Shown here: in pieces, positions 17,533 to 60,723 of the stretch | Layout of the letters: every line of letters starts with the position of its first letter | How positions within the stretch are numbered: position 1 is the stretch's first letter | NCBI GenBank assembly: GCA_963708175.1 | Contig: CAVPSD010000006.1 | Coordinates: 640,538 to 704,537, forward strand | Direction of reading: 5' to 3' | From: an uncultured Acidimicrobiales bacterium | GTDB lineage: Bacteria; Actinomycetota; Acidimicrobiia; Acidimicrobiales; DATKAS01 | DNA length: 64,000 nucleotides | Made by a program: the position numbers and the translations under genes | The notes under the pieces: model-generated | What the model was told of the DNA's origin: nothing | What the model saw: the letters and a program-made list of their open reading frames with translations, nothing else | The model's database searches: none

Positions 17533-17598
17533 AGCGTCAAGTATCGCCTCAGGTGCAACGATTCGGGGCGGCTGGACGACTGGAGAGACGTGACCGGC

Positions 17599-18051: not shown

Positions 18052-19205
18052 ACGACTTCGACGATCTCGATCAGCTCGAGCGCGACGTCGGCCACGCGCT
18101 ACGTACCGCACTGCGGCGGGGCGCCTCACAGATCAGGCCCGAAGACATGCCGCGGCTGGATTCGGGGGAAATCCTCATGGGCTACGTCACCTCTCCATCG
18201 CCCGAGAGGCCTCTTCGCGACGAGCACAGGCGTGCCCCGCGTCGCGGGGCGATGCTGATTGGTGCGCTGTCGGTCGCCGCGGCGGTCGTCGCCGTCGCGG
18301 TTCTCGACCGGCCGTCCCACCCAGCGCCACCGATCCAGTCGCCCACGACCACGTCCGCGCCTGCTCCGACCACGACCACGTCGCCGCCGGTGCCATACCC
18401 ATACAAATCACCCGTCTTCTTGTTCGACGTCGCTACTCGGACTCGGACGCCCCTGCCTTCCGGGCTCCTCGAGGGCTTCAGTCCCAGCGGCGGCTATGTG
18501 CCGTCGCCAGACGGTACGCGGGTCGCGGCCATCGGTTGCACCCCCGACACGTACCCGTGCGTGGTCCCTGACTCGATCGCCGTCGGCAACATCGACGGGA
18601 GCAACGTCCGCACGATCGCGCCTCCCGACGGCACGAGGCTGCTCGTGCCGGGACCCAGCTGGTCGCCTGACGGCACCAAGATCGTCTACCACGCCCGGGA
18701 CGACAGCACCGCCCTCATCGGAGAGCTCTTCATCGAAGACGTGGCGACCGGGGCCGGGATCCAGCTCACCCACCTCGAGCTGTTTTACTCTGGCGCGTTC
18801 CCCCTGTCGCCGACGTTCACCCCTGACGGCCAGAGTGTGCTGTTCATGCTTCCCAATTCTTCACGGATGAACGGCAGCGATGTGTGGTCGGTTCCCGTGA
18901 CTGGGGGTGAGCCCACACTCGTGATTGAGCACGCCGCGTGGCCCGCGCCTCTGCCCGACGGTAAGAGCATCGCGTACGTCTCAGAGTCCCTCAGTGACAT
19001 CTGGGTTGCGAGCAGGAACGATCCGGGCTCGGCTCGACCCGTGATCTCCACGGCGGCCCCCGTCTTCGGCCTGTGGGCCTCGCCCGACGGGACCAAGCTC
19101 CTCTGTGGCGGGGTCGTCGTCGACATCGGCACCGGTGCGGTGCACTCCGTCCCAAACGGTGGAAGCGCCGCGTGGCTCGACAATGAGACGCTCATCCTTA
19201 GCTAG
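18048..19205 (+). CDS. membrane-anchored anti-sigma-like protein with periplasmic PD40/TolB-type beta-propeller
   Basis: GTG 18048 overlaps the sigma stop (GTGA). One TM helix MLIGALSVAAAVVAVAVL and a Pro/Thr linker. PD40-like repeats SPDGTRVAA, SWSPDGTKIVY, TFTPDGQSVLF, PLPDGKSIAY, WASPDGTKLL. Confidence 0.65.
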   Translation: MNDFDDLDQLERDVGHALRTALRRGASQIRPEDMPRLDSGEILMGYVTSPSPERPLRDEHRRAPRRGAMLIGALSVAAAVVAVAVLDRPSHPAPPIQSPTTTSAPAPTTTTSPPVPYPYKSPVFLFDVATRTRTPLPSGLLEGFSPSGGYVPSPDGTRVAAIGCTPDTYPCVVPDSIAVGNIDGSNVRTIAPPDGTRLLVPGPSWSPDGTKIVYHARDDSTALIGELFIEDVATGAGIQLTHLELFYSGAFPLSPTFTPDGQSVLFMLPNSSRMNGSDVWSVPVTGGEPTLVIEHAAWPAPLPDGKSIAYVSESLSDIWVASRNDPGSARPVISTAAPVFGLWASPDGTKLLCGGVVVDIGTGAVHSVPNGGSAAWLDNETLILS

Positions 19206-42772: not shown

Positions 42773-42779
42773 GCGCCGG

Positions 42780-42837: not shown

Positions 42838-42855
42838 CAGGGCTCAGCGCCAGTC

Positions 42856-42874: not shown

Positions 42875-42887
42875 GGGCGGCGGACTC

Positions 42888-42945
42888 GCGGGATTGTCGA
42901 GCGAAGCGAGCAGGAGCCAGCCGAAGCGAAGCGGAGGATGGCGAC
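42888..42945. repeat. intergenic 57-58-nt repeat, copy 2
   Basis: Perfect direct copy of 42780..42837, 51-nt spacer, ends 15 nt before the potC stop. Confidence 0.9.
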
Positions 42946-42959
42946 GAGGAAGGCTGAGC

Positions 42960-43853: not shown

Positions 43854-44773
43854 CGCTCGAGCTCCCGTTGCGCCCTGGCCGTCACCCAGACGTAGTACGC
43901 CATGAGCACGAGCAGCATCGCCGACAGGATGAGCACCAGCGACGCGCCCACCTGCTTCTGCGTCGAGTTCTGTATGTAGAAGGTGATCTGGTTGCCGATC
44001 ATCGAGGTCTTCGGCGACCGCGAGAGCAGGTCGGTCGTGTAGTAGTCGCCGAACATCGGCAACGCGACGATGACGGCCGCGGCGATGCACCCCTGCTTGC
44101 TGAGCGGCAGCGTGACGCGGAAGAACGCCGAACGCGCGGTCGCGCCGGCGTCGCGCGCGGCCTCGAGCAGCCGTGGATCGATGCGATCGAGACTGGCGTA
44201 GAGCGGAAGGATCAAGAACGGGATGTACCCGTACACGAGCCCGAGCACGACGGTGACGGGGTTCGCGTCGAGGAAGTTGCGGGGACCCCCGAAGATCGGG
44301 AACGCCTCGAGGAACCGGTTGACCCAACCGTCGGCACTCAGCAGGTTGACCCACGCGAGCATCCGCATGAGGTAGCTGACCCAGAAGGGCAGGACGAGCA
44401 ACGCCAACAGCAGCGCACGCCGTCGACCCGCGTGGCGTGCCAGGTAGTAGGCGACCGGGTACCCGATGAGGAAGCAGAGCGCGACCGCGCACGCGACATA
44501 GAGGATCGTGCGCTCGAACGGTGCCCGCAGATCACCGGTGAGGACGCGAGACAGGGTGTCGTTGAACGCGGTGAAGTCCCACTGCAGCGGGTTCCACTCG
44601 GGCTGCGCGGTGAGGAAGATCGGGTCGGTCGTGCCGAAAGCGACGCCGGCCACGGCGTAGAAGGGGATGAAGAAGAAGGCGAGCAGCCATGCCGTACCGG
44701 GAAGCGTGAAGCCTCCCCAGAGGAACCCGAGCTCGTTCGGCCGGGTCAGCCTCCGGCGTTGAACTTGCTCCAC
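43850..44773 (-). CDS. potB: polyamine-type ABC transporter permease
   Basis: 307 aa, GTG start. LEAARDAGATARSAFFRVTLP EAA loop. Six TM helices. Confidence 0.75.
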   Translation of the reverse strand: MEQVQRRRLTRPNELGFLWGGFTLPGTAWLLAFFFIPFYAVAGVAFGTTDPIFLTAQPEWNPLQWDFTAFNDTLSRVLTGDLRAPFERTILYVACAVALCFLIGYPVAYYLARHAGRRRALLLALLVLPFWVSYLMRMLAWVNLLSADGWVNRFLEAFPIFGGPRNFLDANPVTVVLGLVYGYIPFLILPLYASLDRIDPRLLEAARDAGATARSAFFRVTLPLSKQGCIAAAVIVALPMFGDYYTTDLLSRSPKTSMIGNQITFYIQNSTQKQVGASLVLILSAMLLVLMAYYVWVTARAQRELER

Positions 44774-45958
44774 GCGTCCTCGAGCTTGGCCTCGGTCTCA
44801 CGCGGCAGGGCGAGGATGAAGATGCCCTGGGCGAAGTCCTCGTCGGTCACCAACGTGTTCGTGAGGTTCTCGGGGATGATCTCGGCGGCGAGCACCTTGT
44901 CGGCCTCCATCCCCTGCACCACGCCCTGGTAGCCGGTGAACGCGAAGTTCGTGAGCGCGTTGTCGGTGTCCATCAGCATGTCGAGGAAGAGGTGCGCGAG
45001 CACCGGATGCTCCGCGTCCTTCAGGATCGCGCTCGAGGTCGGTGCCGACGACGGTGACGTCCTTCGCGGGGCGCCAGTAGCCGAGCACCGAAGGCTCCAC
45101 GCCGTCGGGCAGATAGCCCGTGGCGAGCACCATGTCGCCCGACCAGGCCTGGTTGATCTTCGCCTCGCCGGCAGGCAGCTTCTCGTAGGCGACGATGTCG
45201 ACCTTCACGTTCGAGTCGTCGACGAGACGCTGCAGCTCCGCGGCGGCCGACGCGAGGTCGTCGTCGCTGGGCGTGTTGATGTTCGTCTTACCCAGCTTGA
45301 GCATCGCCATCGCGAATGCGTCACGCGAGTCGTTGAGGATGCCGACCTCGCCCTTCCATTTCGGATCCCACAGTGCGTCCCATCCCTGCTGGTCCATCGT
45401 CGCCGGGTCGATCGCGTCGGTGCGGAAGCCGATGCCGGTGGTGAACACCGTGTAGGGGATTCCGTAGTGCAGCCCTTGGTCGAAGAACGGGTTCGCGGCA
45501 CTCGGCAGCAGGTTGCCGACGTTCGTGAGGTAGGTCTTGTTGAGCGGCTGGATGAGCTTCGCTCCGACGTACTTCGGCAGCTGGTCGATGCCGATCGACA
45601 GGATCAGGTCGACCTTCAGCGCGCCCGACGAGATCCTCGAGAGAAGCTCGGGGCCGTTTTCGTAGGTGGAGATGGAGACGTCGACGCCGTACTTCTCCTT
45701 GAATGCATCGACGAGCTCGGGCGAGACGAAGTCGGCGTAGTTCGCGATGTTGAGCGTGCCGCTCTCGGGGCTGAGGCCGTCGGCGATCGCCGGGTTGTCG
45801 TCGTAGATCGGCAGCGTGACGGGTTTGTCCGGGGTGGCGATCTGCGTAGCCACCTCGGTGTCGACGTTGGCACTCGAGTCGTCGCTGCCGCACGCAGCGA
45901 TCACCACGACGGCGGCTGCGGCACCGAGGAGCGTGCGACGGGAGAACGGCGCGGCCAT
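44746..45958 (-). pseudogene. potD: polyamine-type ABC transporter substrate-binding lipoprotein, frameshifted (extra base near 45034)
   Basis: Twin-Arg/lipobox N-terminus RRTLLGAAAAVVVIAACGS. ORF 44798..45958 reads to ..VTVVGTDL. The conserved SAILKDAEHPVLAHLFLDMLMDTDNAL...KFNAGG* continues in another frame (ORF 44746..45003). The junction is gac ctc G agc gcg. Confidence 0.75.
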
Positions 45959-46042
45959 GATCGAGCGAGCCTAGGGGCCGGAACAGACCTGTCGGGCGGC
46001 GGGAGCGAAAGCTGAACGACGAGTCAGGACTACGCTCTGCCC

Positions 46043-47670
46043 ATGGCAGAGCTCGCCGATGCGATCGTGATCGGCGGCGGGCACAACGGCCTCGTCGCCG
46101 CCGGCTTCCTCGCCAAGGCCGGGCTGCGCCCGATCGTGCTCGAAGCCCGCGACGGTCATCGGTGGCGCAGCCATCACCGAGCAGCCGTGGGGGCCCGACT
46201 TCAAGGTCACCGCGCTGTCATACGTCATGAGCCTGATGCCGCGACGCGATCATCGACGGGCCTCGACCTCGAGCGGCACGGCTACAAGGTGTACCCGATG
46301 GGCCCGTCGTACTCGCCGCTGCCCGACGGGCGGCGCCGTGCACATGAGCGAGGACCCTGCGGACCGCTTCGAGTCGGTCGCCAAGTTCTCCAAGCGCGAC
46401 GCCGAAGCGCTGCTCGAGTACGACGCCTGGCTCGAGGGCATCGCCGAGGTGCTCGGACCGCTGCTCACCGCGGTGCCGCCGAAGCTCGGCTCGAAGCGGC
46501 CGCGCGACCTCGTCGACCAGCTGCGGACTGGCGTGGCGGCTGCAGGGTCTCGACGTGCGCACCGCGGCCGACGTCGACGCGGCTGTTCACGATGTCGATC
46601 GCGCGACCTGCTGCGCGAGTGGTTCGAGACGCGACGCGGTGCAGGCGATGATGGCGGTCAACGGCATCATCGGCACGTGGGCCGGGCCCGAGGAACCGGG
46701 CACGGCATACGTGATGCTCCACCACTCGATCGGTGACGTCGGCGCCGGGCCGACCTCGAGGCGTGGGGCTACCCGCACGGCGGCATGGGCGCGGTGAGCG
46801 ACGCGATCCGCCGCGCGCCGAGTCGCTTCGGCGCGACGGTGCGCACGAGCGCCCCGGTCGAGCGGGTGCTCGTGCGCAACGGCGGGTCGTACGGCGTGGC
46901 CCTCGCCGACGGCGACGAGATCGACACCGACCTGGTCGTCACTGCGATCCACCCGCAGATCCGCTTCCTCCGCCACCTCGACGCCAGCGAGCTGCCCGAC
47001 GACTTCGTGCGCCGCATCCGCAACTGGCAAGACCGCAGCGGCACCGTGAAGGTGAACCTCGCGCTGTCGCGAGCTGCCCGACTTCTCGTCGCGATCCCGG
47101 CTCACACCAGCAGCCGCACCACACCGGCGCGATCGAGCTGGCCCATCGCTCGACTACCTCGAGCACGCGTTCCAAGCAGGCGGTGAGCGGCGCGCCAGCG
47201 ACCCGCCCGTTCAGCGACGGCTGCATCCCCTCGACGTGATCGCACGATCTGTCCCGCCGGGCACGCACGTGATGAGCCTCTTCACGCAGTGGGTGCCGCA
47301 GACGTGGAGCGACGAGCCGCACCCGCGACGAGCTCGAGGCGTACGCCGATCGGGTGATCGACGGCTACGACGAGCTGGCGCCCAACTTCCGACGTCGATC
47401 ATCCACCGCCAGGTGATCGGGCCGTACGAGATGGAGCACACCTACGGCCTCATCGGCGGCAACATCTTCCACGGCGAGCTCAGCGTCGACCAGCTGTTCC
47501 ACAACCGCCCGGCGCCGGGGTACGCCGACTTCCGCCCCCCGATCGCCGGCCTCTACCAGGCGCACTCGGCCACGCACGGCGGTGGCGGCGTCACCGGCAT
47601 CCCCGGCTGGCAGGCCGCGCGGGCCGCACTCGCCGATCAGCGGGCCGCGCGGTGGAGAATCAAGCGATGA
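46043..47670 (+). pseudogene. CrtI/phytoene-desaturase-like FAD-dependent oxidoreductase, multiply frameshifted (copy 1)
   Basis: Starts DAIVIGGGHNGLVAAGFLAKAG (Rossmann GxGxxG). Conserved segments alternate between all three frames more than ten times. Ends ..GGGVTGIPGWQAARAALADQ..*. ATGA overlap with the next gene. Confidence 0.75.
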
Positions 47671-48874
47671 CGACGCGGCGGCCCGCCCCCATCGACCCGG
47701 CGGCGCTCGACCGCGTGCTCGCGCCGTTCGGCCACAGCCACATGCTGCCGCGGGAGGCCTACGTCGACGAGGCCGTGCTCGCGTGGGAGCGCGAGGCACT
47801 TCTTCGAGGGTGGATGGGTGTGCGCGGCCGCGTCACGGACCTGCCCGAGCCCGGCAGACCAGCGCGCACTGTCGGCCGGCGGCGCCGGGCGTGCTGCTCA
47901 CGCGTGACCGCGACGGCGTGCTCCACGCCTTCGCCAACGTCTGCCGCCACCGCGGCCACGAGCTGCTCCCGTGCGCGGGGCGACAGTCGTCAACACGAGT
48001 GTCGTCGACAAGGCTGTCGTGCAGTGCCCGTACCACGCGTGGAGCTACGAGCTCGACGGCCGCCTGCGCCTCGCGCCACGGTTCGACGGCGGACGAACTT
48101 CGATCCGTCGAGCGGTCGCGCTGCTGCCGGTCCGGTCACGCCGAGTGGGGCGGCTGGCTGTTCGTGAACGTGTCCGGCGACGCCGCCGGCCCTTCGACGA
48201 GCACCTCGGCGTCTCTCGCCGGCGCAGCTCGCGAACTGGGAGTGCGAGCGCCTGGTCGTCGCCGCCACCCATCACTACGAGCTCGCCGGCGAACTGGAAG
48301 ATCGCGGTCGAGAACTACCACGAGTGCTACCACTGCCCGCTCATCCACCCCGAGCTGCGCGGGTGTCGCCCGCCCGACGTCGGGCGACAACTCGACGAGG
48401 GCCCGGCGCGTGGGTCGGCGGCACGATGGACCTGCGCCGACTGCGCGTCGACGATGTCGCTCAACGGCGAGTCGGGCGGAGTGGCGCTGCCGCGGGCTCG
48501 ACCGCCGAGCAGCGGCGCCAGGTGCTCTACCTCAAGGTGTTCCCGAACCTGCTGGTCAGCCTGCACCCCGACTACGTGATGACCCATCGGATCGAGCCGG
48601 TGTCCGCCGGCGCGCACGACGGTCGAGTGCCAGTGGCTCTTCGCGCCCGAGGCCGCGAGCGTCCCGACTTCGACCCACCTACGCCGTCGACTTCTGGGAC
48701 CTCACGAACCGCCAGGACTGGGCCGCGGTCGAGTCGGTGCAGCGGGGACTTTCGCATCCCTCGTTCGTGCCGGGCGTGCTTGCGGAGCAGGAGAGCGACG
48801 TCTACCGCTTCGTCACGATGGTGGCGCGCGGCTACCGCTGCGAGCCGATCAGGGGCGGAGCGGTACCGCGCTGA
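47667..48874 (+). pseudogene. Rieske [2Fe-2S] oxygenase alpha subunit (choline-monooxygenase-like C-domain), multiply frameshifted (copy 1)
   Basis: Rieske motifs CRHRGHEL and CPYHAWSY are found in different frames. WKIAVENYHECYHCPLIHPEL and the C-terminal DFWDLTNRQDWAAVESVQRG are in yet other frames. Confidence 0.7.
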
Positions 48875-49448
48875 CGCCGAGCAGCGACGCGGTGGCGCGG
48901 CGCGCCTGTCCGAGCGACGCCGCACGCCGGCTCGAGGTCAGCGCGACCTGCACGCCGAGGCCGTCGATCAACGCAGCGATCACCGCGGCCATCTCGGCTG
49001 CGTCGCCTTCACTGAACACACCGCTGTCCATGCCCTCCTGGACGACGGCTTCGAGGACGGCACGCCAGCGGTCGTCCAGCTGACGCCACGTACGCCGCAG
49101 CACGGGCGAGCGCAGCGCCTCCCCCCACGAGTCGATCCACATCGCCCACGACGCGCGTGTGCTCGGTCCGACGCCGGCGACGAGGAGCGCGTCGATGCGA
49201 TCGACGGGCGACGAGGGTGAGTCCGCGATCGCGTCGAGGTCGTCGAGCTCGTTTCGTGAGGCGAACGCGAACGCCTCGGCGAGCAGCGCGTCCTTGGACC
49301 CGAAGTGGTACACGACGAGCGGCGGCGAGATGCCCAGCCGGTGGGCGACGTCGCTCATGCGGGTGTTGGCGAAACCCCGCTCGCGCAGCACCTCACACGT
49401 GGCCCCGAGGATCTCCTCGCGCCGAGCCTCCCCCTTCGGCCGCGGCAT
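48849..49448 (-). CDS. TetR-family transcriptional regulator
   Basis: ORF trimmed to ATG 49448 ([49 protein letters not shown] is the TetR HTH). 1-nt TGATG overlap with the upstream accessory gene. Confidence 0.85.
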   Translation of the reverse strand: MPRPKGEARREEILGATCEVLRERGFANTRMSDVAHRLGISPPLVVYHFGSKDALLAEAFAFASRNELDDLDAIADSPSSPVDRIDALLVAGVGPSTRASWAMWIDSWGEALRSPVLRRTWRQLDDRWRAVLEAVVQEGMDSGVFSEGDAAEMAAVIAALIDGLGVQVALTSSRRAASLGQARRATASLLGVSAVPLRP

Positions 49449-49696
49449 CAGGCGGCCGTGACCCCGTCGGCCGCAAGCATGTCCTCGAGCGCGTGCACCC
49501 ACGCCTCGTAGTAGGGCATGTCATCCGGATGGGCGGCGATTGCCGCGATGAGATGCGGGCGGAAGTGCTCCCACGCCTGGCCGGTGCTGTCGAGGTAGGC
49601 GGCCACCATCCCGAACGCCCGGCTCTCCCAGGGTGCCCCGAACACGAGCTCACCGTTCTTGCGCGGCACCTCGCTCGGGAGGTCGCCCTTGGTCAC
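49448..49696 (-). CDS. nitrile hydratase accessory (activator) protein
   Basis: GTG 49696 overlaps the alpha-subunit stop (GTGA). [37 protein letters not shown] matches the NHase accessory-protein family. 82 aa. Confidence 0.7.
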
Positions 49697-50308
49697 CGGA
49701 CCACGCCGATCATGTGGTCTCGCGTGACGAGAGTCGGCGAGCTCGTCCTCCGACCGGCCGTCGACGGCGTCGGGCACGAGCGGCAGGACGAGGTAGCGGA
49801 TCTCGGCGCTCGAATCCCACACCCGCAGCTCGACGTCGTCGTCGAGAGTCGTCCCGAACTCTGCCAGGACCGCACGGGGTTCGCGCACGACTCGCGACCG
49901 ATACTCGGGGCTCTTGTACCAGCGCGGCGGGAGGCCCAGCACGGGCCACGGGTAGCACGAGCACAGCGTGCAAACGACGACGTTGTGGACGGTGGGCGTG
50001 TTCTCGAGGGCGACGATGTGCTCACCCTCGGCGCCGCCGAAGCCGAGCTCTGCGATCGCCGCTGTCGCGTCGTCGAGCAGGCGCTCGCGGTACGCGGGGT
50101 CGACCCAGGCGCGGGCGACGACCTTGGCACCGTTCATCGGCCCGAGGTCGTGCTCGTAGGCCTCGACGACCGCATCGATCGCGTCACTGGTGACGAGACC
50201 GCGTTCGACGAGGAGCGACTCGATGGCGGCGACGCGGTTCTCGACGTCCGTGAGCGGCGCGGGGTGGTGCCCATGGTCGTGATCGTGGTCGCCGTGCTCG
50301 TCGCTCAT
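49693..50308 (-). pseudogene. nthA: cobalt-type nitrile hydratase alpha subunit, frameshifted near the 3' end (extra base at about 49732)
   Basis: Metal claw [10 protein letters not shown] (CTLCSC is the Co type). The His-rich N-terminus is [15 protein letters not shown]. After ..SEDELAD the conserved [12 protein letters not shown] is in the +1 frame, so the ORF track shows an alpha::accessory fusion (49448..50326). Confidence 0.8.
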
Positions 50309-50943
50309 TCGAGGTAGGTCTCCCACAGGTCGATGTACAGCGTGCCCGGTTCGGCATCGGCGCCCCAGAGATCGTGCATTGCGAAGGCAACGGTGTAGAG
50401 CGCCTCGGGCTCACCCTCGCCCATGGTGTGCGGCAGCGGCCACCCGCCGTGCATGGCGACGACCGTGCCGGTGACGCCGCGGACATAGCGCGGGCACCGG
50501 TGATGGTGCGCGGGAGCCATCCTCCGGACGGTCACGCGCTGACCGCTCGCGAACCGCGGGCTGACGCTCGCGACGGGGTCGTCGCGTGGGGAGGTCAGCG
50601 CGCGCACGAGCCCCGCGGCACGATCAGGGTTGGCGGTGGGCGCGACCTCGACGGGCCGTTCGATGCGGTCGTCGATGTCGGCGACCGCGAGAGTGCCCGC
50701 CGCGACGAGACCTCGCTCGAGCGAGAACGCCCAACGCTCGAAGTAGCTCGCCGCGAGGTACGCCGCCGGCGGCATCGCCTCGATGTTCGGGCGCACCCCT
50801 CCGGCCCGGAGCCCGGCGGTGTTCATCATGAGGGCGAACGTGCGACCCTCCCACCGCTCGCGGAACACCGGTTCGTCGTCCTCGAGGAGGGCAGCGACCG
50901 ACCCGAACCCGTGCATCCCACCCATGTCGTGGGCTCCATCCAC
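50305..50943 (-). CDS. nthB: nitrile hydratase beta subunit
   Basis: ORF 50305..51117 trimmed to GTG 50943 ([14 protein letters not shown], the canonical beta N-terminus). ATGA overlap with alpha. Confidence 0.85.
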
Positions 50944-51004
50944 ATTGGTCACCCTACGCGAGCCCGGTAGGCTGAACGACGGTTCAGGATCCGCCGGAGG
51001 TGAC

Positions 51005-52637
51005 ATGGCCACGATCGCCGAACAGCTCGGCGAGATCGGGTTGCCGGAACCGATCAGTGCGCTCGCCGCACGGGAGTGGGACGCAGTGGTCGTCGGCGGC
51101 GGCCACAACGGACTCACGTGCGCGGCCTACCTCGCCCGAGGCCGGCAAGCGCGTGCTGGTGCTCGAGCGGCGCGAGCGGCTCGGCGGCGCGTGCACGCTC
51201 GAGCGACCGTTCCCCGACAGCCGCTACGTCGTCAGCCCGTGCGCGTACGTCGTCGGCCTGCTCGACCAGGTCGTGATCGACGAGCTCGACCTCGCGCCGC
51301 CGCGGGCTCGAGGTCTTCGTGGCCGATCCGAACCTCTGGGCGCCGTTCCCCGACGGCGACGTCGTTCGCGCAGTGGAACGACGACGCGAAGACGCAGGCG
51401 AGCCTCGACGCGCTCGGCCTCTCGCGCGCACGACATCGAGGGCTACTGGGCCTACGAGCAGGTCTTCGACGAGATGCGCCAGCGCCTGCGCACCCGCGGC
51501 CGCGACAGCCTGGATCGGCGAGTCGCCCACGCGCGACGAGCTCGAGGCGATGCTCGGCCACGACCAGTGGATGATCGACATCCTGTTCGACGCGTCGATC
51601 GCCGAGGTGCTCGACCACTACATCGACGATCAGCGCCTGAAGGACGCGCTGTACGGCCAGGGCGTGATCGGCGCGTACGCCGGCCCGCGCGACTGGGGCA
51701 CGGCGTCGGTCAAGCTGATGCACTACCAGGGCGACCTCGGCGGGCAGGGCCCGGTGTGGGGCTACGTCAAGGGCGGGATGGGGGTGATCAGCTTCGCCAT
51801 CGCCGAGGCCGCGGTGGAGGCCGGCGCGGTGCTGGCCTGCGGCGTCGAGGTGGCCGAGATCGTCCCGGGCGAGGGCGTCCGCCTGGAGGGCGGCGAGCTG
51901 ATCCGAGCGTCGCACCGTCGTCTGCAACGCCGACCCGAAGCGGGCGCTGACGATGCTCGGCGCTCCGGGACGCGGTGCCGGCCGCGTACCGGTCGCCGCC
52001 TCGAGGACGTGGCAGGTCCGCAGCCCGGTCGTGAAGTTCAACGCCGCGCTCACCCGCCTGCCGACCGTTCCCGGCCGCCGACGGCGCGACGTGGCCGTAT
52101 CACGTCGATGATCTCGGTGACCCACGGGCTCGACGCCGCGCAAGCAGGCGTTCGAGGACTGCCGGCCGGCCGCGCCAACGTCGGCTACGGCGAGGTGTAC
52201 TTCCAGACCGGCTACGACCCGACGCCCGCGCCCGAAGGGCCGGCACCTGATGAGCGTGTTCGGGCAGTACGCGCCGTACACGCTGCCGACGGCTCGACGT
52301 GGGACGACACGCGCGACGGCGTCGCGCGGCAGTTCGTCGACCTGATCGGCGACGTTCGCGCCCGACATCGAGGACTGCATCGAGCACTGCGAGGTGCTCG
52401 GCCGCCCCGGACATCGAGGCGCGCGTCGGGCTCACCGGCGGGCACATCTTCCAGGGCGAGACGATGCCCGACCAGATGTGGGAGCACCGCCTCACGGCGC
52501 GCACGCCGATCCCCGGCTTCTACTTCTGCGGCGCCGCGACCCATCCCGCCGGCTCGGTCATCGCGCTCAACGGCCGCAATGCGGCCATGGCCCTGCTCGT
52601 GGACGACCTACCAAAGGGAGTCGGCGAGCGCGCGTAG
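51005..52637 (+). pseudogene. CrtI/phytoene-desaturase-like FAD-dependent oxidoreductase, multiply frameshifted (copy 2)
   Basis: WDAVVVGGGHNGLTCAAYLA at the N-terminus. Later conserved blocks (DQWMIDILFDASIAEVLDHYIDDQRLKDALYGQGVIGAYAGP.., ..TGGHIFQGETMPDQMW..FYFCGAATHPAGSVIALNGRNAA) lie in different frames. Confidence 0.7.
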
Positions 52638-53693
52638 CAGGAGCTGGTGCACGTGAGCCACGCCCTTCTCGTGCTCGGGCGACAGCCTCCCCCGCGGGTC
52701 GAGGCCGCCGTCGTAGCTGCGCTGGACCCGCTCGCAGATGTCGAGGTCCTGCTCGCCGACCGCGAGCGCGGCTTCGTGATCGGCCTTGCGGCGGGCGTCA
52801 CCGACCTCGGACGTCCAGTAGCGGTGGTAGTCGACGCGTGACGTGCGCGGGCCGAGCGGCGTGACGATCAGCGCGTGGAAGTAGCTCGGGAAGACGCTCA
52901 CCATCAGGTTTGGGAAGATGGTGAAGTAGAGGCCGGACATGAAGGGCTCGTCCGCGTGCGATGCCGCGACTTCCTCCCATCCGGGCTTGATGCGGTCGGC
53001 CGCGAGCACGACCATGCCCTCCACTTCGATCGGATAGTCCCAGCCCGTGCCCCCGAGCTGCGGATGGATGAACGGCGTGTGGAAGTTCTCGGAGTAGTTC
53101 TCGACGAGCAGCTTCCAGTTGAACGAGCGCACGACGTGCTCGGTGAGGCCGGGCTCCATCGTCTCGACGGCGCACGGATCGATCGCGTCGGCGAGGGGCC
53201 CGAGGTCGAGCGGCGGCGCTTCGAGGTCTGGGTTGACGAACAGGAAGCGCGACCACGTGGCGACCTGCACGGGGAAGAGCGAGGAGTCGGCGAGGTCGAA
53301 GCCTGGGGCGCCGGTCATCCCACGTGCCTTCGAGAGGCGTCCGTCGAGCTGATAGATCCACGCGTGGTACGGGCACTGCAGCACTCGCACCTGACCCGTG
53401 CCCTCCGCGACCGGCGAGCCCCGATGGCGGCACACGTTGAGGAAGCCGTGCAACGTGCCCTTCGCGTCCCTCGTCACGAGCACAGGGATCTCGCCGCCGA
53501 CGAGAGCGGTGGTGAACGAGCCCGGTGCGGCAACCGAGTCGGTGGTGCCGACACACGACCACCCGTGCCGGAACACCGCGTCGACCTCGGTGTGGTGATG
53601 ATCGGTGTCGCCGTACCAGCGCACCGGAAGTGTGGTCGCGCGGAGCAGGGGAACGCCGAGCCGCAACCGCACCTCGTCTCGCAACGATCCCAC
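52608..53693 (-). CDS. Rieske [2Fe-2S] oxygenase alpha subunit (choline-monooxygenase-like C-domain), intact (copy 2)
   Basis: 361 aa, GTG start. CRHRG...CPYHAW Rieske motif. NWKLLVENYSENFHTPFIHP mononuclear-iron region. The 3' end overlaps the convergent oxidoreductase by 30 nt. Confidence 0.8.
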   Translation of the reverse strand: MGSLRDEVRLRLGVPLLRATTLPVRWYGDTDHHHTEVDAVFRHGWSCVGTTDSVAAPGSFTTALVGGEIPVLVTRDAKGTLHGFLNVCRHRGSPVAEGTGQVRVLQCPYHAWIYQLDGRLSKARGMTGAPGFDLADSSLFPVQVATWSRFLFVNPDLEAPPLDLGPLADAIDPCAVETMEPGLTEHVVRSFNWKLLVENYSENFHTPFIHPQLGGTGWDYPIEVEGMVVLAADRIKPGWEEVAASHADEPFMSGLYFTIFPNLMVSVFPSYFHALIVTPLGPRTSRVDYHRYWTSEVGDARRKADHEAALAVGEQDLDICERVQRSYDGGLDPRGRLSPEHEKGVAHVHQLLLRALADSLW

Positions 53694-53705
53694 GGCTCCA
53701 GCCTC

Positions 53706-55143
53706 TCAGGCGTAGGAGGGGTGCGCGCGGGCCGAATGCCGATCGTCGAGCGCGGACACCGCCTCGGCGAAGCGCTCGACGTTGGCGACGAAGCGCCGAG
53801 CGTCGCTGTCGGTGTGCTGCACCGACAGGGTCCACTGCTCGCTCTTGCCCCAGGGCGGAAGGAAGACGCCGCCGTTGTGCTGGAAGAGCCAGTGGCAGTG
53901 GGAGAGCTCGGTGTCGACAGCAAGGAACTCGCGGTAGTGGCGCACCGGGGTCGGGTGGAACACGAGACACCCCTTCGCCCCGAACCGATGCCCGTACGCG
54001 GACACGCCGTTCTCGGCGCACGCGGTGAGGGCTCCTTGCATCATCTGCGCGCCCAGCTCGTCGATGCGCGCGTACGCCGTTGGGGTGAGCACCTCGGTGA
54101 GCGTGGCGCGAGCCGCAGCCATCGTGAGCGGGTTTCCGTTGAACGTGCCGACCTGGTCGTAGCGGCCGTCTGCGATCGCCGACATGACCGCTTCGGTGCC
54201 ACCGATCGCACCGCAGGGCAGGCCACCCGCGAGCGCCTTCGCGAGGCAGACGATGTCCGGGGTGACCCCGGAGATACCGGTGACGCCGGCGGGACCCGTG
54301 GTCAGGCCGGTCTTCACCTCGTCGAACGCGAGGAGGACGCCGTGCTTGCGGGTCAGCGCGCGGACCCCCTCCAAGTAGCCGGGCAGCGGCGGGATGATCC
54401 CCGCGTTCATCATCATCGGCTCGATGATCACGCCTGCGATCTGACCGTCGAGCTCGGTGAGGACCCGCTCGAGCACCGCGAGGTCGTTGAAGGGAACGAC
54501 AGTGGCGAGGTCAATCATCGCCTGGGGGATGCCGCTGCCCGCGGCGACGCTCGCGGGTCGCTCGTACGGACCGACCTCGTCGAAGCCGTGGAACATCGAC
54601 ACCATCACCGCGTCGTGATGACCGTGGTAGCTGCCTTCGATCTTCACGATGCGATCGCGGCCCGTGATCGCGCGCATGAGATGGATCGCGTCCATCGTTG
54701 CCTCAGTGCCGCTGTTCCCGAAGCGCCAGAGGGGAAGGCCGAACCGTTGCGCGAGGTTCTCGGCGACGACGACCGCGTCGTCGGTCGGCTGCGCGAAGTG
54801 CGACCCGAGCGCGATCCGCCGCTGCACCGCCTCCGACGATCGCCGGATGGGCGTGGCCGACGAGCATCACGCCGTAGCCGCCATGCAGGTCGACGTACTC
54901 CGTGCCGTCGACGTCCCAGATCCTGGAGCCGTGGCCGTGGCTGACCCACACCGTGCCTGGCCTGCTGATCATCCAGCTCGAAGTCGCCCCACCCGCGAGC
55001 ACCCCTTTCGCTCGCGCGGTGCGGGCGGCGGACGCCGGTTGACGGGCGATGAAGACCCGCTCTTCCCGCTCGATCAGGTCATCGAGCGACATCTCCGAAA
55101 GCTGTGACTCCGAAACCCTCGCGGCATCAGCGAGGAGTGCCAT
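53706..55143 (-). pseudogene. class-III aminotransferase (glutamate-1-semialdehyde aminomutase-like), frameshifted (extra base near 54833)
   Basis: The N-terminal 103 aa (MALLADAARV..GYGVMLVGHAHPAIV) are in one frame. EAVQRRIALGSHFAQPT...FDEVKTG...CLAKALAGG (PLP-Lys) is in ORF 53706..54827. The junction is atc gtc G gag gcg. Confidence 0.75.
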
Positions 55144-55164
55144 GGGAACCAACCCCTGTCGCCT

Positions 55165-55201
55165 GACTGACTCATCAGTCGAGACTGACTGATTGGTCAG
55201 T
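55165..55201. promoter_or_regulatory. two operator-like palindromes sharing GACTGACT half-sites in a divergent promoter region
   Basis: GACTGA-ctca-TCAGTC (55165..55180) and ACTGAC-tgattg-GTCAGT (55184..55201). GACTGACT occurs at 55165 and 55183. The segment is locally AT-richer, between the divergent aminotransferase and M15 genes. Confidence 0.45.
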
Positions 55202-55229
55202 ATAAACACAGGCGGGCGCGCCCGGGAAG

Positions 55230-55247
55230 CCCCCCCCCCCCCCCCCC
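55230..55247. repeat. C18 homopolymer tract
   Basis: 18 consecutive C residues (counted by hand from the numbered lines), 25 nt upstream of the M15 peptidase GTG start at 55273. Confidence 0.9.
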
Positions 55248-55272
55248 ACACGCGCGCCCGTACGCTTCCCAG

Positions 55273-56039
55273 GTGGCTCGCCGGCTCAAGCTCGCGGGGG
55301 CTGCGCTCGCGGCGCTGCTTCTCGCCGGTTGCGTGCACCCCCGCCCGGACTGGTTGGGCACGCGGCCGCTCCCGCTTCGGCCGGACGGGCTCGGTGAGAT
55401 CCAGCCGACCCCGCCCGAGCTGGTCGACCGCCAGCTCGTGTCGATCGACTACCTGCCGCCTCCGGCGTCCGACACGTTCGAGTCGTCGATCGAGATGGTG
55501 CCCGCGGAGGTGGTCGCTCGATCCACGTACACGCGGGCGTGCCCGGTCGCGCTCGAGGACCTCCGCTACGTGAAGGTGTCGTTCTTCGGGTTCGACCGGA
55601 AGTTCCACACCGGTGAGCTGCTGATCCACGAAGTCGCGGCCGCACCGATCGTCGAGGTGTTCCGCAAGCTGCACGCGGCTCGCTTTCCCATCGAGGAGAT
55701 GCGAATCCCCGATCCCGCACTGGCGAACGCCGCGCCCACGGGCGATGGCAACGACACGGTCGCGTTCGCGTGCCGTCCGGTCGTGACGTCGACGCAGACG
55801 TGGTCGCAGCACGCGTTCGGCTTGGCGATCGACATCAACCCGTTCCAGAACCCGTACGTGAAGGGCGACATCGTGATCCCCGAGCTGGCGTCGTCCTATC
55901 TCGCCGCGGCAGCGTTCGTCCGGGGATGATCGAGCCGAATGACGTCGTGGTGAAGGCGTTCACGTCGATCGGCTGGAAGTGGGGCGGCAGCTGGAGCTCG
56001 CTGAAGGACTTCCAGCACTTCTCCGCCAACGGCAAGTAA
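55273..56039 (+). pseudogene. M15-family (VanY/LAS-type) D-Ala-D-Ala carboxypeptidase-like lipoprotein, frameshifted (1 base missing near 55900)
   Basis: Lipobox LLLAGC. Zinc motif SQHAFGLAID (H-x6-D) and the distal His in DFQHFS. The C-terminal RRGSVRPGMIEPNDVVVKAFTSIGWKWGGSW..* lies in the -1 frame (ORF 55770..56039). Confidence 0.7.
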
Positions 56040-56104
56040 CGCTTCGCCGATTCTCTTGGTGCTGGCGTGCCGTATCGAGTGAGAAACACCAAGAAATCGA
56101 GCCG

Positions 56105-56549
56105 TCAGCGGCGGCGGATCTTGGTGCGGCGGATGTCGAGGCGCTCGCCGGTGGACTCGTCGACGACGACGGGATGGATCTCGTCGCCGGTCTCACGGTC
56201 GACGAGGCGGACGGGGGGCAGCTCGCCGTCAGGCCAGAGCCAGTCCTCGCCCCATCGCCACATCGCCGCGAGGACATCCCAGAACGCGCGGCCCTTGTCG
56301 GTGAGGCGGTACTCGTAGCGTGGCGGATGCTCCTCGTACGCCACGCGGTCGAGCATCCCTTCGTCGACCAGTCGATCGAGCCGCGCCGCGAGCACCGCGC
56401 GCGGGATGCCGAGGTCCGCGATGAAGTCGTCGAAGCGTTTGCACGCCGGCGAACGCGTCGCGCAGCACGAGCGGCGTCCACCAGTCGCCGATGAGGTCGG
56501 TGGTCCGAGCGATCGGGCACGGCCACTCGTCGAAGCGCGTGCGGCGCAC
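56105..56549 (-). pseudogene. HxlR-family transcriptional regulator, frameshifted (extra base at about 56441)
   Basis: CPIARTTDLIGDWWTPLVLRDAFAGV is in one frame, then KRFDDFIADLGIPRAVLAARLDRLVDEGMLDRVAYEEHPPRYEYRLTDKG in the next (ORF 56105..56395). GTG 56549 lies 2 nt after the upstream stop. Confidence 0.7.
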
Positions 56550-56551
56550 CG

Positions 56552-58812
56552 TCAGGCCACCGCCTCGACCCGAGCCCGCACGTGCTTGTGCCACGGAGTG
56601 CCAGCGAGCCAGTCGCGGTCGTGCCGCGACGTGAGCTCGTTCGGCGCCACGCCGTGCGATCGGCCGTCTGTCGGGCGAGGTGAGCCCGAGGCCGTTCGGC
56701 AGGCTCACGTGGCCGGGCTGCATGCATCGGTGACCTCGACCGGCGCTTCGATCGATACCGCGCCGGGTCATGACGCGCACGCGCCCACCGCTCCTCCACG
56801 CCGACGGTCGCGGCGTCGTCGGGGTTGATGCGCAGCGCGCTGCCGCCGTCCTTCTTCCGCCAGGCGGGGTCGCGGAAGATCGTGTTGGCCGTCGACGATG
56901 CGCCGCTCGCCGGCCGAGAGCACGAACGGGAACTCGGCGTCGGCGAGGCACCTCGTCGGCGAGCGACGAGAGCTCCTCGAGCAGCTCGGGGATCACGAGG
57001 TTGATCTTGCCGTCGGCGTGTATCGAGCCGCTTCCAGGTCTCGTCGTACTCGTCGACTGTGAAGACGACGCCCGACGCGGTTCGCGAGGATCGCGTCGAA
57101 CAGCGCGTCGCCGGCTGGCCATCGAGCCCGCTCGTCGCACCGACTCGGGATAGGTCATGAAGCACGTCTGCGCGAGGCCCCACACCGCAGCCGCGCCTTC
57201 TCGGCCCTCGCCGAGCGTCGGGCCGAGCGTCTCGTAGAGCACGACCGGCGCGAGCCGGCGCGAGGTGCGGCTGCTCGACCATGGCGTCGAGAAAGGCGTC
57301 CGCGTACGCGCCGCGCCCCATTGCGCGCCGCAGCGTGCAGGCCGGCGACGTCGTCGTCGGTGAACGCGCCGAGCGCGCGCACGAGCCGGCGTGGATCTCG
57401 GGCTCCGGCAGCGTGCCGGGCAGCGGCTCGAGGATCGGCGCGCGCAGCTGGAAGACGTTCTCCGGGAACTCGAGCGTGAAGAACGTCGCCTCCCACTTCT
57501 CGTACTGGGACGAGGCCGGCAGGACGTAGTCCGCGCGGCGCGCGGTCTCGGTCAGGGCGACGTCGATCACCACGACGCAGCTCGAGCGCGTCGAAGCGCC
57601 TCGCGCATGCGCTGGCTGTCGGCGAGCGAGTGGACCGGGTTCGTCGCTCTCGACGATCATCGCCCGGAAGCGCTCGGGATGGTCGGTGAGGATCTCGTCG
57701 GGGATCGACGTTGCACGGGATGAGCCCGGTGATGATGCGGTGACCGCCGACCGGGCTGCGCCGTCGCCGCCGCCCTTGCCGCCACCGCCGAGGCCCGCCA
57801 TGCGCGTGTGGATGTTCATCCCGCCCGGCTTCGCGAAGTTGCCGGTGAGCAGGTAGAGCGAGCTTCTCGAGGTAGGAGTTGAGCGTGCTGTGCGGCGCCT
57901 GCTGGATGCCGAGGTCCTCGTAGATCGACGACGCTCGCGGCGCGGGCGATGCGGCGCGCGACCGCCCGCACGTCCTCCTCGGCTCACACCGGCGCGTCGC
58001 GCACGAGTCCGCGATCGGCACCGTCGCGAGATGGGCGCGCAGCTCGTCAGCCGTTGCGCGTGCGTCGGCCAGCGAAGCCGTGGTCGAGCAGGACCTCCTC
58101 GACCAGGACGCGAGCAGCGCGCGCGAGGCAGCAACGCGTCGGTGCCCGGACGCACCTGCAGATGGATAGTCGGCCAGCTCCGCCGTCTCGGTGCGGCGCG
58201 GGTCGATCACGATGAGCGCCCGCTCGGGATCGTTGACGATCGCCTTCAGCACGGTGCGCGCCCGCGGGAACCCGTGCGACTGCCACGGGTTCTTGCCGAC
58301 GAACACGGCGACCTCGGCGTGCTCGTAGTCGCCGGTCGTGTGGCAGCGCGGGCCGCCCGAAGAGCTGACCGTCGACCCAGAACTCGCCCGTCTTCTCCTG
58401 CGCGAGCGCGTTCGAGCGTGTAGATCGAGCCGAGCGCGCTGCGTGTCGCGCGCGCCGTAGGCGCCGCCGAGGTGGTTCCCCTGCCCGCCGCCGCCGTAGT
58501 AGAAGATCGACTCGCCGCCGTGGGCGTCGCGGATCGTCGCCGAGCCGTTCGCGCGACCTCGGCGATCGCGGTGTCCCAGTCGATCTCCTCGAACGTGCCG
58601 TCGGCGCGCCGCCGCAGCGGCGTCGTCAGGCGGTGCCGGCCGTTCTGGTAGTGGTCGAGCCGCAGCGCCTTCTCGCACGTGTAGCCCTGCGAGGCCGGGT
58701 GGGCCTTGTCGCCGCGCACCCGCGTCGAATGCGCCGGCCGTCGAGGCTGCACCTCGATGCCGCAGTTGACGCTGCAGAGGATGCACGCGGTCTGGTGCCA
58801 GTCGTCGCTCAC
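56552..58812 (-). pseudogene. molybdopterin-dependent oxidoreductase (formate-dehydrogenase/nitrate-reductase superfamily), multiply frameshifted
   Basis: GTG 58812 is preceded by GGAGG 6 nt upstream. N-terminal Fe-S motif CILCSVNCG...RVRGDKAHPASQGYTCEK. Internal blocks (GGESIFYYGGGGQGNHLGG, VAVFVGKNPWQSHGF, VVVIDVALTETARRADYVLPASSQYEKWE) and the C-terminal NELTSRHDRDWLAGTPWHKHVRARVEAVA* are scattered over three frames. Confidence 0.75.
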
Positions 58813-58849: not shown

Positions 58850-59524
58850 TTACTCCCGATCGCGAGGATCGTCCACGAAACCGACCGATTTGTGGCTCCC
58901 GTCGCACAGGGGCTTGCGGTCGGAGGCGCCGCATCGACAGAGGGCAACCCGGTTGCGGCGTTGCAGCTCGCCCTCCTCACCGACGTCCACCGGGATGCCG
59001 CCGGTCACCCACAGCGGGCCGTTCACCATCACGCCGATCTCGGCAAGGAGCCGAGGTTCGTTGTCGGTCGAGCCGCCGTCGATCGAATAGCTGATCGCAC
59101 CCGAGGGGCACCGCTCGACCATCGCGACCAGCATCGAGCGAACGGTCGTGTCGTCGGTCTTGCGAACCATCTTCCAGACGTTCGTGATCGTCGTCCCGCA
59201 GAACCCCGCGTGCACACAGACGTTGCGGTCGTCGAAGAGCGTCACCCCCGTGCCCGGATACTCGGTCGGCTGGCGCTCCCGCCGAGCATCATCGGCTTCG
59301 AAGCCGACCCGCAGATGCGAGCCATCGCAGAACGGCTTGCGCGCCGACTGCCCGCACCGGCAGAGCGCGTAGCGCTCCTTGTGACCGATCTCGGGCCCGA
59401 CTTCCCATGCGATCGGCTCCCCGAGCTCGGTCTCGACCTGGGCCTTGGCGACGACGGGCACGTCGCCGACGACCGCGTACGGCCCGTTCGGCCGCACCGT
59501 GATGCGGGGCTCGACCGGAGACAT
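58850..59524 (-). CDS. CDGSH iron-sulfur domain protein (CDGSH - ferredoxin-like mono-cluster - CDGSH)
   Basis: Two CDGSH motifs (CRCGQSARKPFCDGSH, CRCGASDRKPLCDGSH) flank a C-x-H-x2-C ... CP segment (VCVHAGFCG...ERCPSGAI). Confidence 0.85.
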   Translation of the reverse strand: MSPVEPRITVRPNGPYAVVGDVPVVAKAQVETELGEPIAWEVGPEIGHKERYALCRCGQSARKPFCDGSHLRVGFEADDARRERQPTEYPGTGVTLFDDRNVCVHAGFCGTTITNVWKMVRKTDDTTVRSMLVAMVERCPSGAISYSIDGGSTDNEPRLLAEIGVMVNGPLWVTGGIPVDVGEEGELQRRNRVALCRCGASDRKPLCDGSHKSVGFVDDPRDRE

Positions 59525-59561: not shown

Positions 59562-60635
59562 TCAGAGGGCGGAGACGGGCTCCTCGCCGTTGGCCTTCAG
59601 CACCTCGTTCAGGATCGCGAGGTCGAAGAGGCCCGTGAGGTCAGGGACCTCTTCGAGCAGCCCGACGTCGTACGCGTCGGCTGCCGACTGCTGCACGGAC
59701 GACGCAACGGGATCGTTCGTGAATGTGAGGTTCCCGAATGCCGGGCCGAGCACACCGTCCGCGATCTTGTTCCCCGTGATCGACTCGATCTGCTCGTTCG
59801 CGATCTGCTCGGCCTCGTCGGGGTTCGCCGAGATGAACGCCTCGGTGGCGATCTGCGCCTCGATGAGCGTCTTCACGACGTCGGGATGTTCGTCGAGGAA
59901 CTTCTTGCTCACGATGAGCTCAGTGGTGGCGAACTTGCCGTCGGGCCAGAGGTCGCGCTCGTCGACGAGCACCTTGCCGCCACCCTCGACGACGAGGCGC
60001 GTCGCCCAGGGTTCGGGCACCCAGGCGCCCTGCACGGTGTCGGCCTTGAACGCCTCGAGGGTCTGGGAGTTCTCCTGCGGATGGATCGACACGTCGCCGC
60101 CGCCGGTCGTGTCCACGCTGAGGCCGTTGTCCTTCAGATACGCGCGCAGCGCGACGTCCTGCGTGTTGCCGAGCGAGGGCGTCGCGAGCACCTTGCCCTT
60201 CAGATCTTCGGGACCCTCGATGTCCGGCTTCACGACCAGCGCCGCGCCACCTGACGTCGCGCCGGCGACGATGCGCAACGCCTCGCCGTTCGACTTCACA
60301 TAGCCGTTGACGGCGGGGTTCGGGCCGATGTACCCGGCGTCGATCGCACCGGCGAACAAGGCCTCGATCTCCTCGGTGCCGGCACCGAAGATCGACGTCT
60401 CCAGCTCCACGTCCGAGCCGAGCGTCTCGGCGAACGTGCCGTTCCCCACGCCGACGAGAGGCGTCGCGTGGGTGATGTTGGCGAAGTACCCGAGGCGGAG
60501 CGTGGTGGCTTCGCCCCCACTGTCGCCGCCGCCCTCGGCTGCGCCCGCTGAGCCCCCGTCGTCCCCACACGCGGCCGTGAGCAGGGCGAACACGAGCAAC
60601 AGCGGCAGCAAGAGGAGCGGTCGGCGGCGGTCCAT
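59562..60635 (-). CDS. ABC transporter substrate-binding lipoprotein (NitT/TauT, aliphatic-sulfonate/nitrate-type family)
   Basis: Trimmed to ATG 60635, with GGAG 9 nt upstream. Lipobox LLTAACG. LRLGYFANITHATPLVG and TPSLGNTQDVALRAYL are typical of the NMT1/SsuA-like family. No permease or ATPase is adjacent. Confidence 0.7.
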   Translation of the reverse strand: MDRRRPLLLLPLLLVFALLTAACGDDGGSAGAAEGGGDSGGEATTLRLGYFANITHATPLVGVGNGTFAETLGSDVELETSIFGAGTEEIEALFAGAIDAGYIGPNPAVNGYVKSNGEALRIVAGATSGGAALVVKPDIEGPEDLKGKVLATPSLGNTQDVALRAYLKDNGLSVDTTGGGDVSIHPQENSQTLEAFKADTVQGAWVPEPWATRLVVEGGGKVLVDERDLWPDGKFATTELIVSKKFLDEHPDVVKTLIEAQIATEAFISANPDEAEQIANEQIESITGNKIADGVLGPAFGNLTFTNDPVASSVQQSAADAYDVGLLEEVPDLTGLFDLAILNEVLKANGEEPVSAL

Positions 60636-60723
60636 GGGTGTAATCTCCATAAAGTTGATCGGATTAGTCAGGTATTTCTACTCCGCGCCGCGCCGCTTCT
60701 GCAAGGGGTCGGTGACGCCCGGC

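Follow-up and report, generated by a model that had tools for sequence, protein, structure and literature searches.

Dense frameshifts in four redox genes of an uncultured Acidimicrobiales bacterium are very probably long-read consensus errors

The window, that is the whole 64,000-nucleotide stretch analysed here (contig CAVPSD010000006.1 of an uncultured Acidimicrobiales bacterium), carries a gene island in which four genes are heavily frameshifted. Three are encoded on the plus strand: a CrtI-like FAD/NAD oxidoreductase, CrtI 1 (46043..47670; Amino_oxidase, NAD_binding_8), a ring-hydroxylating oxygenase alpha-like protein, Rieske 1 (47667..48874; Rieske, Ring_hydroxyl_A), and a second CrtI-like FAD/NAD oxidoreductase, CrtI 2 (51005..52637). 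The fourth, a molybdopterin-dependent oxidoreductase, MoOx (56552..58812; Molybdop_Fe4S4, Molybdopterin, Molydop_binding), lies on the minus strand. Codon-usage Viterbi segmentation and a GC3 frame plot placed dense same-strand frame switching only at 46.02-48.85 kb (+), 50.94-52.61 kb (+) and 56.1-58.87 kb (-). Frameshifts were counted by frameshift-aware dynamic-programming alignment of protein to DNA against intact orthologs at other loci (given below as L numbers). CrtI 1 contains 14 insertions and 3 deletions from 46154 to 47397 (reference: the intact L018 ortholog), and Rieske 1 contains ~17-18 events from 47799 to 48679 (references L001, L002 and L018), namely ~14 insertions and 3 deletions, or 13 and 5 with a second reference. 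CrtI 2 contains 16 insertions and 1 deletion from 51140 to 52403 (references L001, L018 and, for the C-terminal part, L003), with two possible further insertions directly upstream at 50948 and 50962. MoOx, which has 84% amino-acid identity to an Illumina-assembled ortholog, contains 28 insertions and 3 deletions from 56657 to ~58746. The alignment thus gives ~17 shifts each in CrtI 1, Rieske 1 and CrtI 2 and 31 in MoOx; the first-pass annotation, made from the sequence alone, had recognised the many frame hops but put them too low, at more than ten. Moreover, what it read as two opposite shifts around CGIEVQ, LDGRRIRR and VRGDKAHP in MoOx are really three +1 insertions (58748, 58729, 58724) that sum to +3. 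A four-way DNA alignment with L001, L002 and L003 showed matching window-private indels, with the three references in agreement.

Overall, the four genes carry ~82-85 events in 6.7 kb (~12.5 per kb), whereas the interleaved genes carry ~6 in 7.8 kb (~0.8 per kb; binomial p = 5e-22). The patchiness described in the first-pass annotation therefore stands, neighbours being ~16-fold sparser in indels, and is stronger than had been estimated. Ortholog alignment also bears out most of the neighbours that it named as clean: no frameshifts were found in the TetR/BetI-type regulator (TetR; 48852..49448, -), nitrile hydratase (NHase) beta (50308..50943, -), a second oxygenase alpha-like gene, Rieske 2 (52611..53693, -; against four references), or the CDGSH iron-sulfur protein (58853..59524, -). 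The NMT1-like solute-binding protein (SBP; 59565..60650, -) is free of them in its body, with a single ambiguous event at its N-terminal end, near 60640. The LarA-like gene, which had no match in a Pfam search, keeps an uninterrupted coding frame as judged by codon-usage segmentation rather than by ortholog comparison.

It is not the case, however, that all neighbours are intact. The class-III aminotransferase (53709..55095, -) has one +1 insertion at 54834 that splits its Pfam profile over two frames, the M15-family D-Ala-D-Ala carboxypeptidase-like gene (55282..56036, +) has one 1-nt deletion near 55901, and the HxlR-like small regulator (56108..56549, -; orthologs 147 aa) has one +1 insertion at 56441. 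Nitrile hydratase alpha, which is read through into a beta-N-like accessory protein (49451..50308, -), leaves its frame for 34 nt (49697-49730) and has a private insertion that the alignment puts at 49735, suggesting two compensating indels. Just upstream of the 46.0-kb patch, a PotD-like solute-binding protein (44749..45961, -) has one insertion near 45034 and perhaps another, of 2 nt, near 45239. Far from the island, an amidase (9861..11259, -) lies in two frames (Pfam positions 1-171 and 185-445) with an isolated break near 10644. Every gene between 11.3 and 45.0 kb had been thought to read through cleanly, but an ECF sigma-70 factor there (17533..18185, +) has its region 4 cut at 31 of 50 profile positions by an isolated frame switch near 17983.

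The spectrum of the indels in the four genes is strongly skewed. Insertions outnumber deletions by ~72-75 to 10 (p = 2e-13), that is ~88% insertions or a ratio near 7:1, and most events are of 1 nt. The inserted bases (C 20, G 15, A 6, T 4) follow background composition; 31 of 45 lie in runs of length 1 and none of the 45 in runs of 3 or more, and the spacing of indels is roughly exponential. The ~85 shift sites have no common slippery or homopolymer context, and none is conserved in any ortholog: L001, L002, L003, L018 and L080 read straight through. Bacterial pseudogenes typically show a deletion bias and mixed indel sizes, and the textbook Nanopore error is the homopolymer deletion. Homopolymer-driven Nanopore error can be ruled out here, since the inserted bases lie outside runs.

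The indels, private to the window sequence, are not accompanied by evolutionary decay. After frame correction there is no in-frame stop in the ~2,200 corrected codons of the four genes, whose amino-acid identity to orthologs (0.77-0.86) equals that of the neighbours. Window-private amino-acid changes amount to 0.07-0.10 in the frameshifted genes against 0.05-0.115 in most clean genes, and the ratio of amino-acid to synonymous-codon difference is 0.55-0.76 against 0.27-0.71. The comparison of indels with substitutions and stops that the first-pass annotation had proposed thus yields no stops and no surplus of amino-acid change. Taken with the insertion bias, this argues that we are not looking at gene decay. 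The earlier premise that old pseudogenes should have lost their amino-acid signal is too strong; what is decisive is how few substitutions there are relative to indels.

The closest relatives of the window (L001, L002 and L018) are Microflora Danica (MFD) Acidimicrobiales MAGs. MAGs of that project are Nanopore-only, assembled with Flye --meta --nano-hq and one round of Medaka (PMC12313526). L002 has insertions and deletions in MoOx (16/2), CDGSH (3/0), SBP (4/0) and another gene (7/0), the insertions again being non-homopolymer, and no frameshifts in Rieske 2, NHase beta or TetR. Dense frame-switch patches are present in both L002 and L018, which are Nanopore loci, and absent from all 10 Illumina loci examined, and the Illumina-assembled L003 and L080 have no frameshifts in any shared gene. 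The indels of the window bear the signature of errors seen in related MAGs that are known to be Nanopore-only. The sites of the patches vary among MAGs, CrtI 1, CrtI 2 and Rieske 1 being intact in L018, L001 and L002. The insertion bias outside homopolymers departs from the textbook Nanopore error, and its recurrence was demonstrated in L002 only.

The exact CDGSH protein is also found on an NCBI/ENA contig of 832,004 bp, a length that would suit a long-read origin, and on a Logan contig (1,050 bp) from run ERR12036778. The members of its 90% cluster (L080-L083) share only ~83% DNA identity with the window. The databases searched held no near-identical independent assembly of the four genes (best 84-91%): full-length corrected MoOx found nothing above 84%, and a 150-aa fragment over five shift sites nothing above 91%. 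The Rieske 2 protein had no exact match, and three more window proteins, looked up exactly with chosen start sites, were absent from the collection.

Every test points to these patches being neither dead genes nor new biology but an artefact of assembly or polishing. On sequence evidence, the four genes are very probably intact in the organism and their frameshifts consensus errors of a long-read-only metagenome assembly. For the window, whose sequencing technology we infer, the most likely route is Nanopore reads with metaFlye and Medaka and no short-read polishing. Of the options offered by the first-pass annotation, locally poor consensus in unpolished long-read patches is supported by the indel spectrum, the lack of decay, the patches in L002 and L018 and the intact Illumina orthologs. 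The isolated frameshifts in the amidase, sigma factor and aminotransferase support the same reading. Three stretches of 1.3-2.5 kb would have stayed at roughly single-read accuracy, with 1-nt insertions scattered at random at ~1.1% and deletions at 0.15%, and the remaining contig would have been polished to ~0.1-0.8 indels per kb. The patches would be spots where polishing found no usable or homogeneous read support, either from low or zero uniquely mapped coverage or because reads of co-occurring relatives were collapsed or cross-recruited at unusually conserved genes; both routes would place patches within gene cores.

All six patch edges lie 66-234 nt inside gene ends, a closer fit to gene outlines than would be expected of low coverage at random. 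The objection that random errors of sequencing ought to ignore gene boundaries fails for metagenome consensus errors, which can be gene-shaped because they track coverage, read mappability and the collapse of sequence common to populations. We infer, with only partial support, that patch placement may be due to read collapse or cross-recruitment at unusually conserved genes. Identity to distant Acidimicrobiales is 78-82% for CrtI 1 and CrtI 2, 53-56% for Rieske 2 and 41-46% for TetR, and MoOx retains 72-75% across phyla; each of the three long-read MAGs has frameshifts in MoOx (window 31, L002 18, L001 3). Rieske 1, at 59-65% in distant relatives, is not unusually conserved. Conservation thus fits three of the four genes, and misfits Rieske 1 and the well-conserved aminotransferase with its single frameshift. 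Confusion between island paralogs (CrtI 1/2, Rieske 1/2) is unlikely, the CrtI paralogs matching over 99 nt only, at ~76% DNA identity.

A different artefact, in which raw long reads were used to bridge gaps between contigs assembled from short reads or by a hybrid method, or the consensus came from low-pass PacBio data, is improbable. Errors that are random, outside homopolymers and mostly insertions are the classic mark of PacBio CLR reads, and the error type here resembles them, yet a matching signature is seen in L002, which has a documented Nanopore-only pipeline. The patches are slightly richer in GC (0.71-0.72 against 0.66-0.70), and Illumina coverage often drops at high GC; however, the GC-rich parts of the window at 31-32 kb (0.728) and 22-23 kb (0.719) are clean, and GC content as the sole cause is ruled out by such equally GC-rich parts. 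Two of the frameshifted genes have island paralogs, but these are only ~75% identical in DNA. Moreover, the isolated indels in the otherwise good sequence argue against Illumina-grade accuracy there.

Genuine recent pseudogenisation, in which a single catabolic island lost the function of four genes that have since gathered many indels, is very unlikely. It would account for a load limited to particular genes with patch edges inside gene bounds, and the region around CrtI 1 (41.75-47.64 kb) does vary between species, being missing from L001 and L002. However, 17-31 indels per pseudogene should bring several-fold more substitutions, stops and a deletion bias of mixed sizes. What is found instead is no stop, no surplus of private change, an unchanged non-synonymous/synonymous proxy and mainly 1-nt insertions. 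Decaying pseudogenes such as those of Mycobacterium leprae share with the window genes multiple frameshifts and recognisable residual homology, but the window genes lack stops and relaxed constraint and have a 1-nt insertion-biased spectrum. Other Nanopore MAGs show this signature too, in different genes, and Illumina assemblies never do; unrelated genes across the window also carry isolated frameshifts. These observations contradict the other option of the first-pass annotation, a recent, selective inactivation of one pathway.

It is highly improbable that the organism's DNA really carries the inserted bases, through a gene-targeted, insertion-biased mutational process or a very recent burst of one that struck four conserved redox genes with +1 insertions before substitutions accumulated. 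In a milder variant of this reading, the patches would faithfully record several diverged alleles that coexist or recombine among sympatric Acidimicrobiales and were collapsed into one consensus. Expression of the genes by programmed frameshifting, transcriptional slippage or RNA editing would fit the amino-acid signal being fully kept between shifts, but is effectively refuted by the lack of a common context at the ~85 sites and of shifts there in orthologs, and we know of no bacterial system that decodes dozens of shifts per gene.

The consensus-error reading puts the window beside Nanopore-only MAGs of the Microflora Danica type, with which it shares the great length of the contig, gene calls that are truncated or in fragments, intact Illumina orthologs and the error signature. 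For metaFlye on Nanopore soil data, the reported share of full-length proteins is just 56.8%, and regions with zero coverage over 1 kb or more number 44 per 100 Mb (PMC13087279). Such zero-coverage or unsupported regions, benchmarked for metaFlye and metaMDBG, defeat polishing since no reads, or only ambiguous ones, map to them; the window patches may likewise be kilobase stretches beyond polishing. Unlike the commonly described pattern of scattered homopolymer deletions, the errors here are mostly non-homopolymer 1-nt insertions, concentrated ~16-fold in three patches of 1.3-2.5 kb.

The significance of these patches would lie in a data-quality warning rather than in biology. For this contig, a molybdoenzyme, a Rieske oxygenase and both FAD oxidoreductases would wrongly pass for broken in gene calls, reconstructed pathways and tallies of pseudogenes, and the warning extends to similar long-read-only MAGs; frame-corrected proteins from alignment are preferable for use. 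If the patches do mark conserved genes common to co-occurring populations, they would offer a useful diagnostic of consensus collapse and would still be an artefact. Gene-shaped error patches are a practical clue for assembly quality control, and the density of frame switches in codon usage flags them without recourse to reads.

At ~69% GC the window carries long spurious ORFs in all frames, and we therefore relied on coding-frame signals and homology rather than on ORF length. Frames were detected by GC3 frame plot, three-frame translation and, over the whole window, codon-usage Viterbi segmentation. By segmentation, dense same-strand frame switching is limited to three stretches, at 46.02-48.85 kb (+), 50.94-52.61 kb (+) and 56.1-58.87 kb (-), with single-frame coding in the genes that separate them. 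Four genes are affected. CrtI-like 1 (46043-47670, +) and CrtI-like 2 (51005-52637, +) have Pfam matches to Amino_oxidase/NAD_binding_8, Rieske 1 (47667-48874, +) matches Rieske and Ring_hydroxyl_A, and the molybdopterin oxidoreductase (molybdoenzyme; 56552-58812, -) is assigned Molybdop_Fe4S4, Molybdopterin and Molydop_binding domains from its homologs. The protein signal at 46043-47670, which the first-pass annotation had described as jumping between frames, does so in both the GC3 frame plot and the three-frame translation. The outermost shifts lie 66-234 nt inward of the gene ends and the adjoining genes are clean; the patches look gene-shaped.

Reference loci came from a search of the intact Rieske 2 protein (52611-53693, -) against one genome per species, which yielded syntenic Acidimicrobiales loci. 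L001 and L002, from Microflora Danica MAGs, and L003, from an Illumina-assembled soil MAG, share ~83% DNA identity with window positions 47.6-60.7 kb and are roughly equidistant among themselves, while L018, from a further Microflora Danica MAG, matches 42.9-55.5 kb and includes the CrtI-like 1 ortholog. The segment at 41750-47640, holding ABC-transporter permeases, a PotD-like SBP and CrtI-like 1, is an insertion/deletion difference among related species, being present in L018 and missing from the syntenic L001 and L002. All reference ORFs were run against the window with a frameshift-tolerant protein-to-DNA aligner based on dynamic programming. In DNA alignments, non-multiple-of-three gaps cluster exactly in the three stretches against every reference, and most are supported by all three references and are thus private to the window.

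Frameshift-aware alignment counts 14 insertions and 3 deletions in CrtI-like 1, ~14 and 3 in Rieske 1, 16 and 1 in CrtI-like 2, and 28 and 3 in the molybdoenzyme; after frame correction all four show 0.77-0.86 amino-acid identity to orthologs. Near the molybdoenzyme N-terminus, what had been read as two opposite shifts is actually three +1 insertions inside 25 nt. Frameshift density is ~12.6 per kb in these four genes compared with 0.77 per kb in their neighbours (binomial p = 5e-22), and the patchiness reported by the first-pass annotation is real. Its list of intact genes holds for TetR (48852-49448, -), NHase beta (50308-50943, -), Rieske 2 and CDGSH (58853-59524, -), each with 0 frameshifts, and for the SBP (59565-60650, -), with 0-1. 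Small corrections are needed for other neighbours: the aminotransferase, an M15 peptidase and an HxlR-like gene have one frameshift each, at 54834, 55901 and 56441 respectively, and NHase alpha and its beta-N-like accessory (49451-50308, -) read through as a single ORF of 286 aa that contains a 34-nt frame excursion (49697-49730). This read-through probably reflects a pair of indel errors that compensate each other rather than a true fusion.

The island at 48852-56036 encodes a nitrile hydratase (beta, alpha and accessory), a BetI-type TetR regulator, two Rieske oxygenase alpha-like proteins, two FAD oxidoreductases and a class-III aminotransferase. It resembles a conserved catabolic cluster, predicted to act on a nitrogen-containing compound.

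Two explanations had been offered for the patches, recent selective inactivation of particular genes or a locally poor consensus. Bacterial indel-to-substitution ratios and deletion bias are such that pseudogenes with 17-31 indels are expected to show obvious substitutions, stops and relaxed constraint. Here, ~88% of indels in the four genes are insertions (p = 2e-13 against 1:1), mostly of one base. The inserted bases match the background in composition; no run of 3 or more holds any of them, and 31 of 45 are in runs of length 1. Indel spacing is roughly exponential (mean ~ standard deviation), and alignments show simple extra bases amid otherwise conserved columns. After frame correction there are 0 in-frame stops in any of the four genes. 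In three-way comparisons, window-private amino-acid change is 0.07-0.10 in these genes versus 0.05-0.115 in most clean genes, and lower still in three of the best-conserved clean genes. The ratio of amino-acid to synonymous-codon differences is 0.55-0.76 versus 0.27-0.71. Neither measure gives a decay signal; pseudogene decay is very unlikely, and selective inactivation is contradicted.

Microflora Danica long-read MAGs rest on Nanopore data alone, with Flye (--meta --nano-hq) assembly followed by one round of Medaka polishing (PMC12313526). With the same aligner, the L002 molybdoenzyme shows 16 insertions and 2 deletions. Other L002 genes have 3/0 (CDGSH), 4/0 (SBP), 2/0 (HxlR) and 7/0 (a cobalt-transport gene), while its Rieske 2, NHase beta and TetR are free of frameshifts; private insertions of L002 are likewise non-homopolymeric. 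The L001 molybdoenzyme has 3 insertions and 0 deletions, and Illumina L003 has no frameshifts anywhere. When frame switches were scanned without a reference, dense patches appeared only in the window and the Nanopore loci L002 (5756-6597 and 19226-20168) and L018 (2851-4708), where they fall in genes other than those hit in the window, and in 0 of 10 Illumina loci. The molybdoenzyme is intact in L080, a JGI Illumina contig. Patch positions vary among MAGs: across L018, L001 and L002 both CrtI-like genes and Rieske 1 are intact. Database searches found no near-identical independent assembly. The window CDGSH protein is identical to one encoded on an 832,004-bp NCBI/ENA contig, whose size points to long-read assembly. 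In published benchmarks of metaFlye on Nanopore soil data, only 56.8% of proteins are full-length, and each 100 Mb contains 44 regions of 1 kb or more that are unsupported (PMC13087279).

Taken together, the lack of a decay signal, the patches in Nanopore relatives, the intact Illumina orthologs and isolated frameshifts elsewhere in the window argue for a locally poor consensus. The patches are very probably an artefact, a biological interpretation is rejected, and the four genes should be treated as intact.

As to why an artefact would be gene-shaped, we infer that the patches may be sites polished without homogeneous read support. Collapse or cross-recruitment of reads at conserved genes could be the cause, and has partial support. 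In distant Acidimicrobiales the orthologs of both CrtI-like genes retain 78-82% identity, against 53-56% for Rieske 2 and 41-46% for TetR, pointing to exceptional conservation or perhaps to lateral spread. This CrtI-like pattern concerns loci L004, L006, L009-L011 and L018, and the two CrtI-like proteins are only ~33% identical to each other. The molybdoenzyme, the gene frameshifted in all three long-read MAGs (the window, L002 and L001), is 72-75% identical across phyla, to proteins annotated from Binatia, Planctomycetia, Deltaproteobacteria and others. Its many truncated copies of ~200-260 aa on 0.2-1.6 Mb ENA contigs fit collapse or cross-recruitment but are suggestive only, as they come without a denominator. 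Contrary to such a cause, Rieske 1 does not stand out in conservation, and the aminotransferase, although well conserved, has just one frameshift. In close relatives the molybdoenzyme always adjoins a two-domain CDGSH protein and an NMT1-like binding protein.

The isolated frameshifts distant from the island are in an amidase (9861-11259, -), whose Pfam match is split near 10644, and in an ECF sigma factor (17533-18185, +), whose match is truncated in region 4 near 17983. Evidence is weak for a possible frame change near 8935 (+) in a beta-propeller-repeat protein. Lastly, 11262-13076 (-) encodes a large secreted protein whose C-terminus bears an LPxTG-like sorting signal (LPATG, then a hydrophobic tail), and in which a repetitive stretch at 11440-11727 is wrongly assigned to the opposite strand by the codon model.
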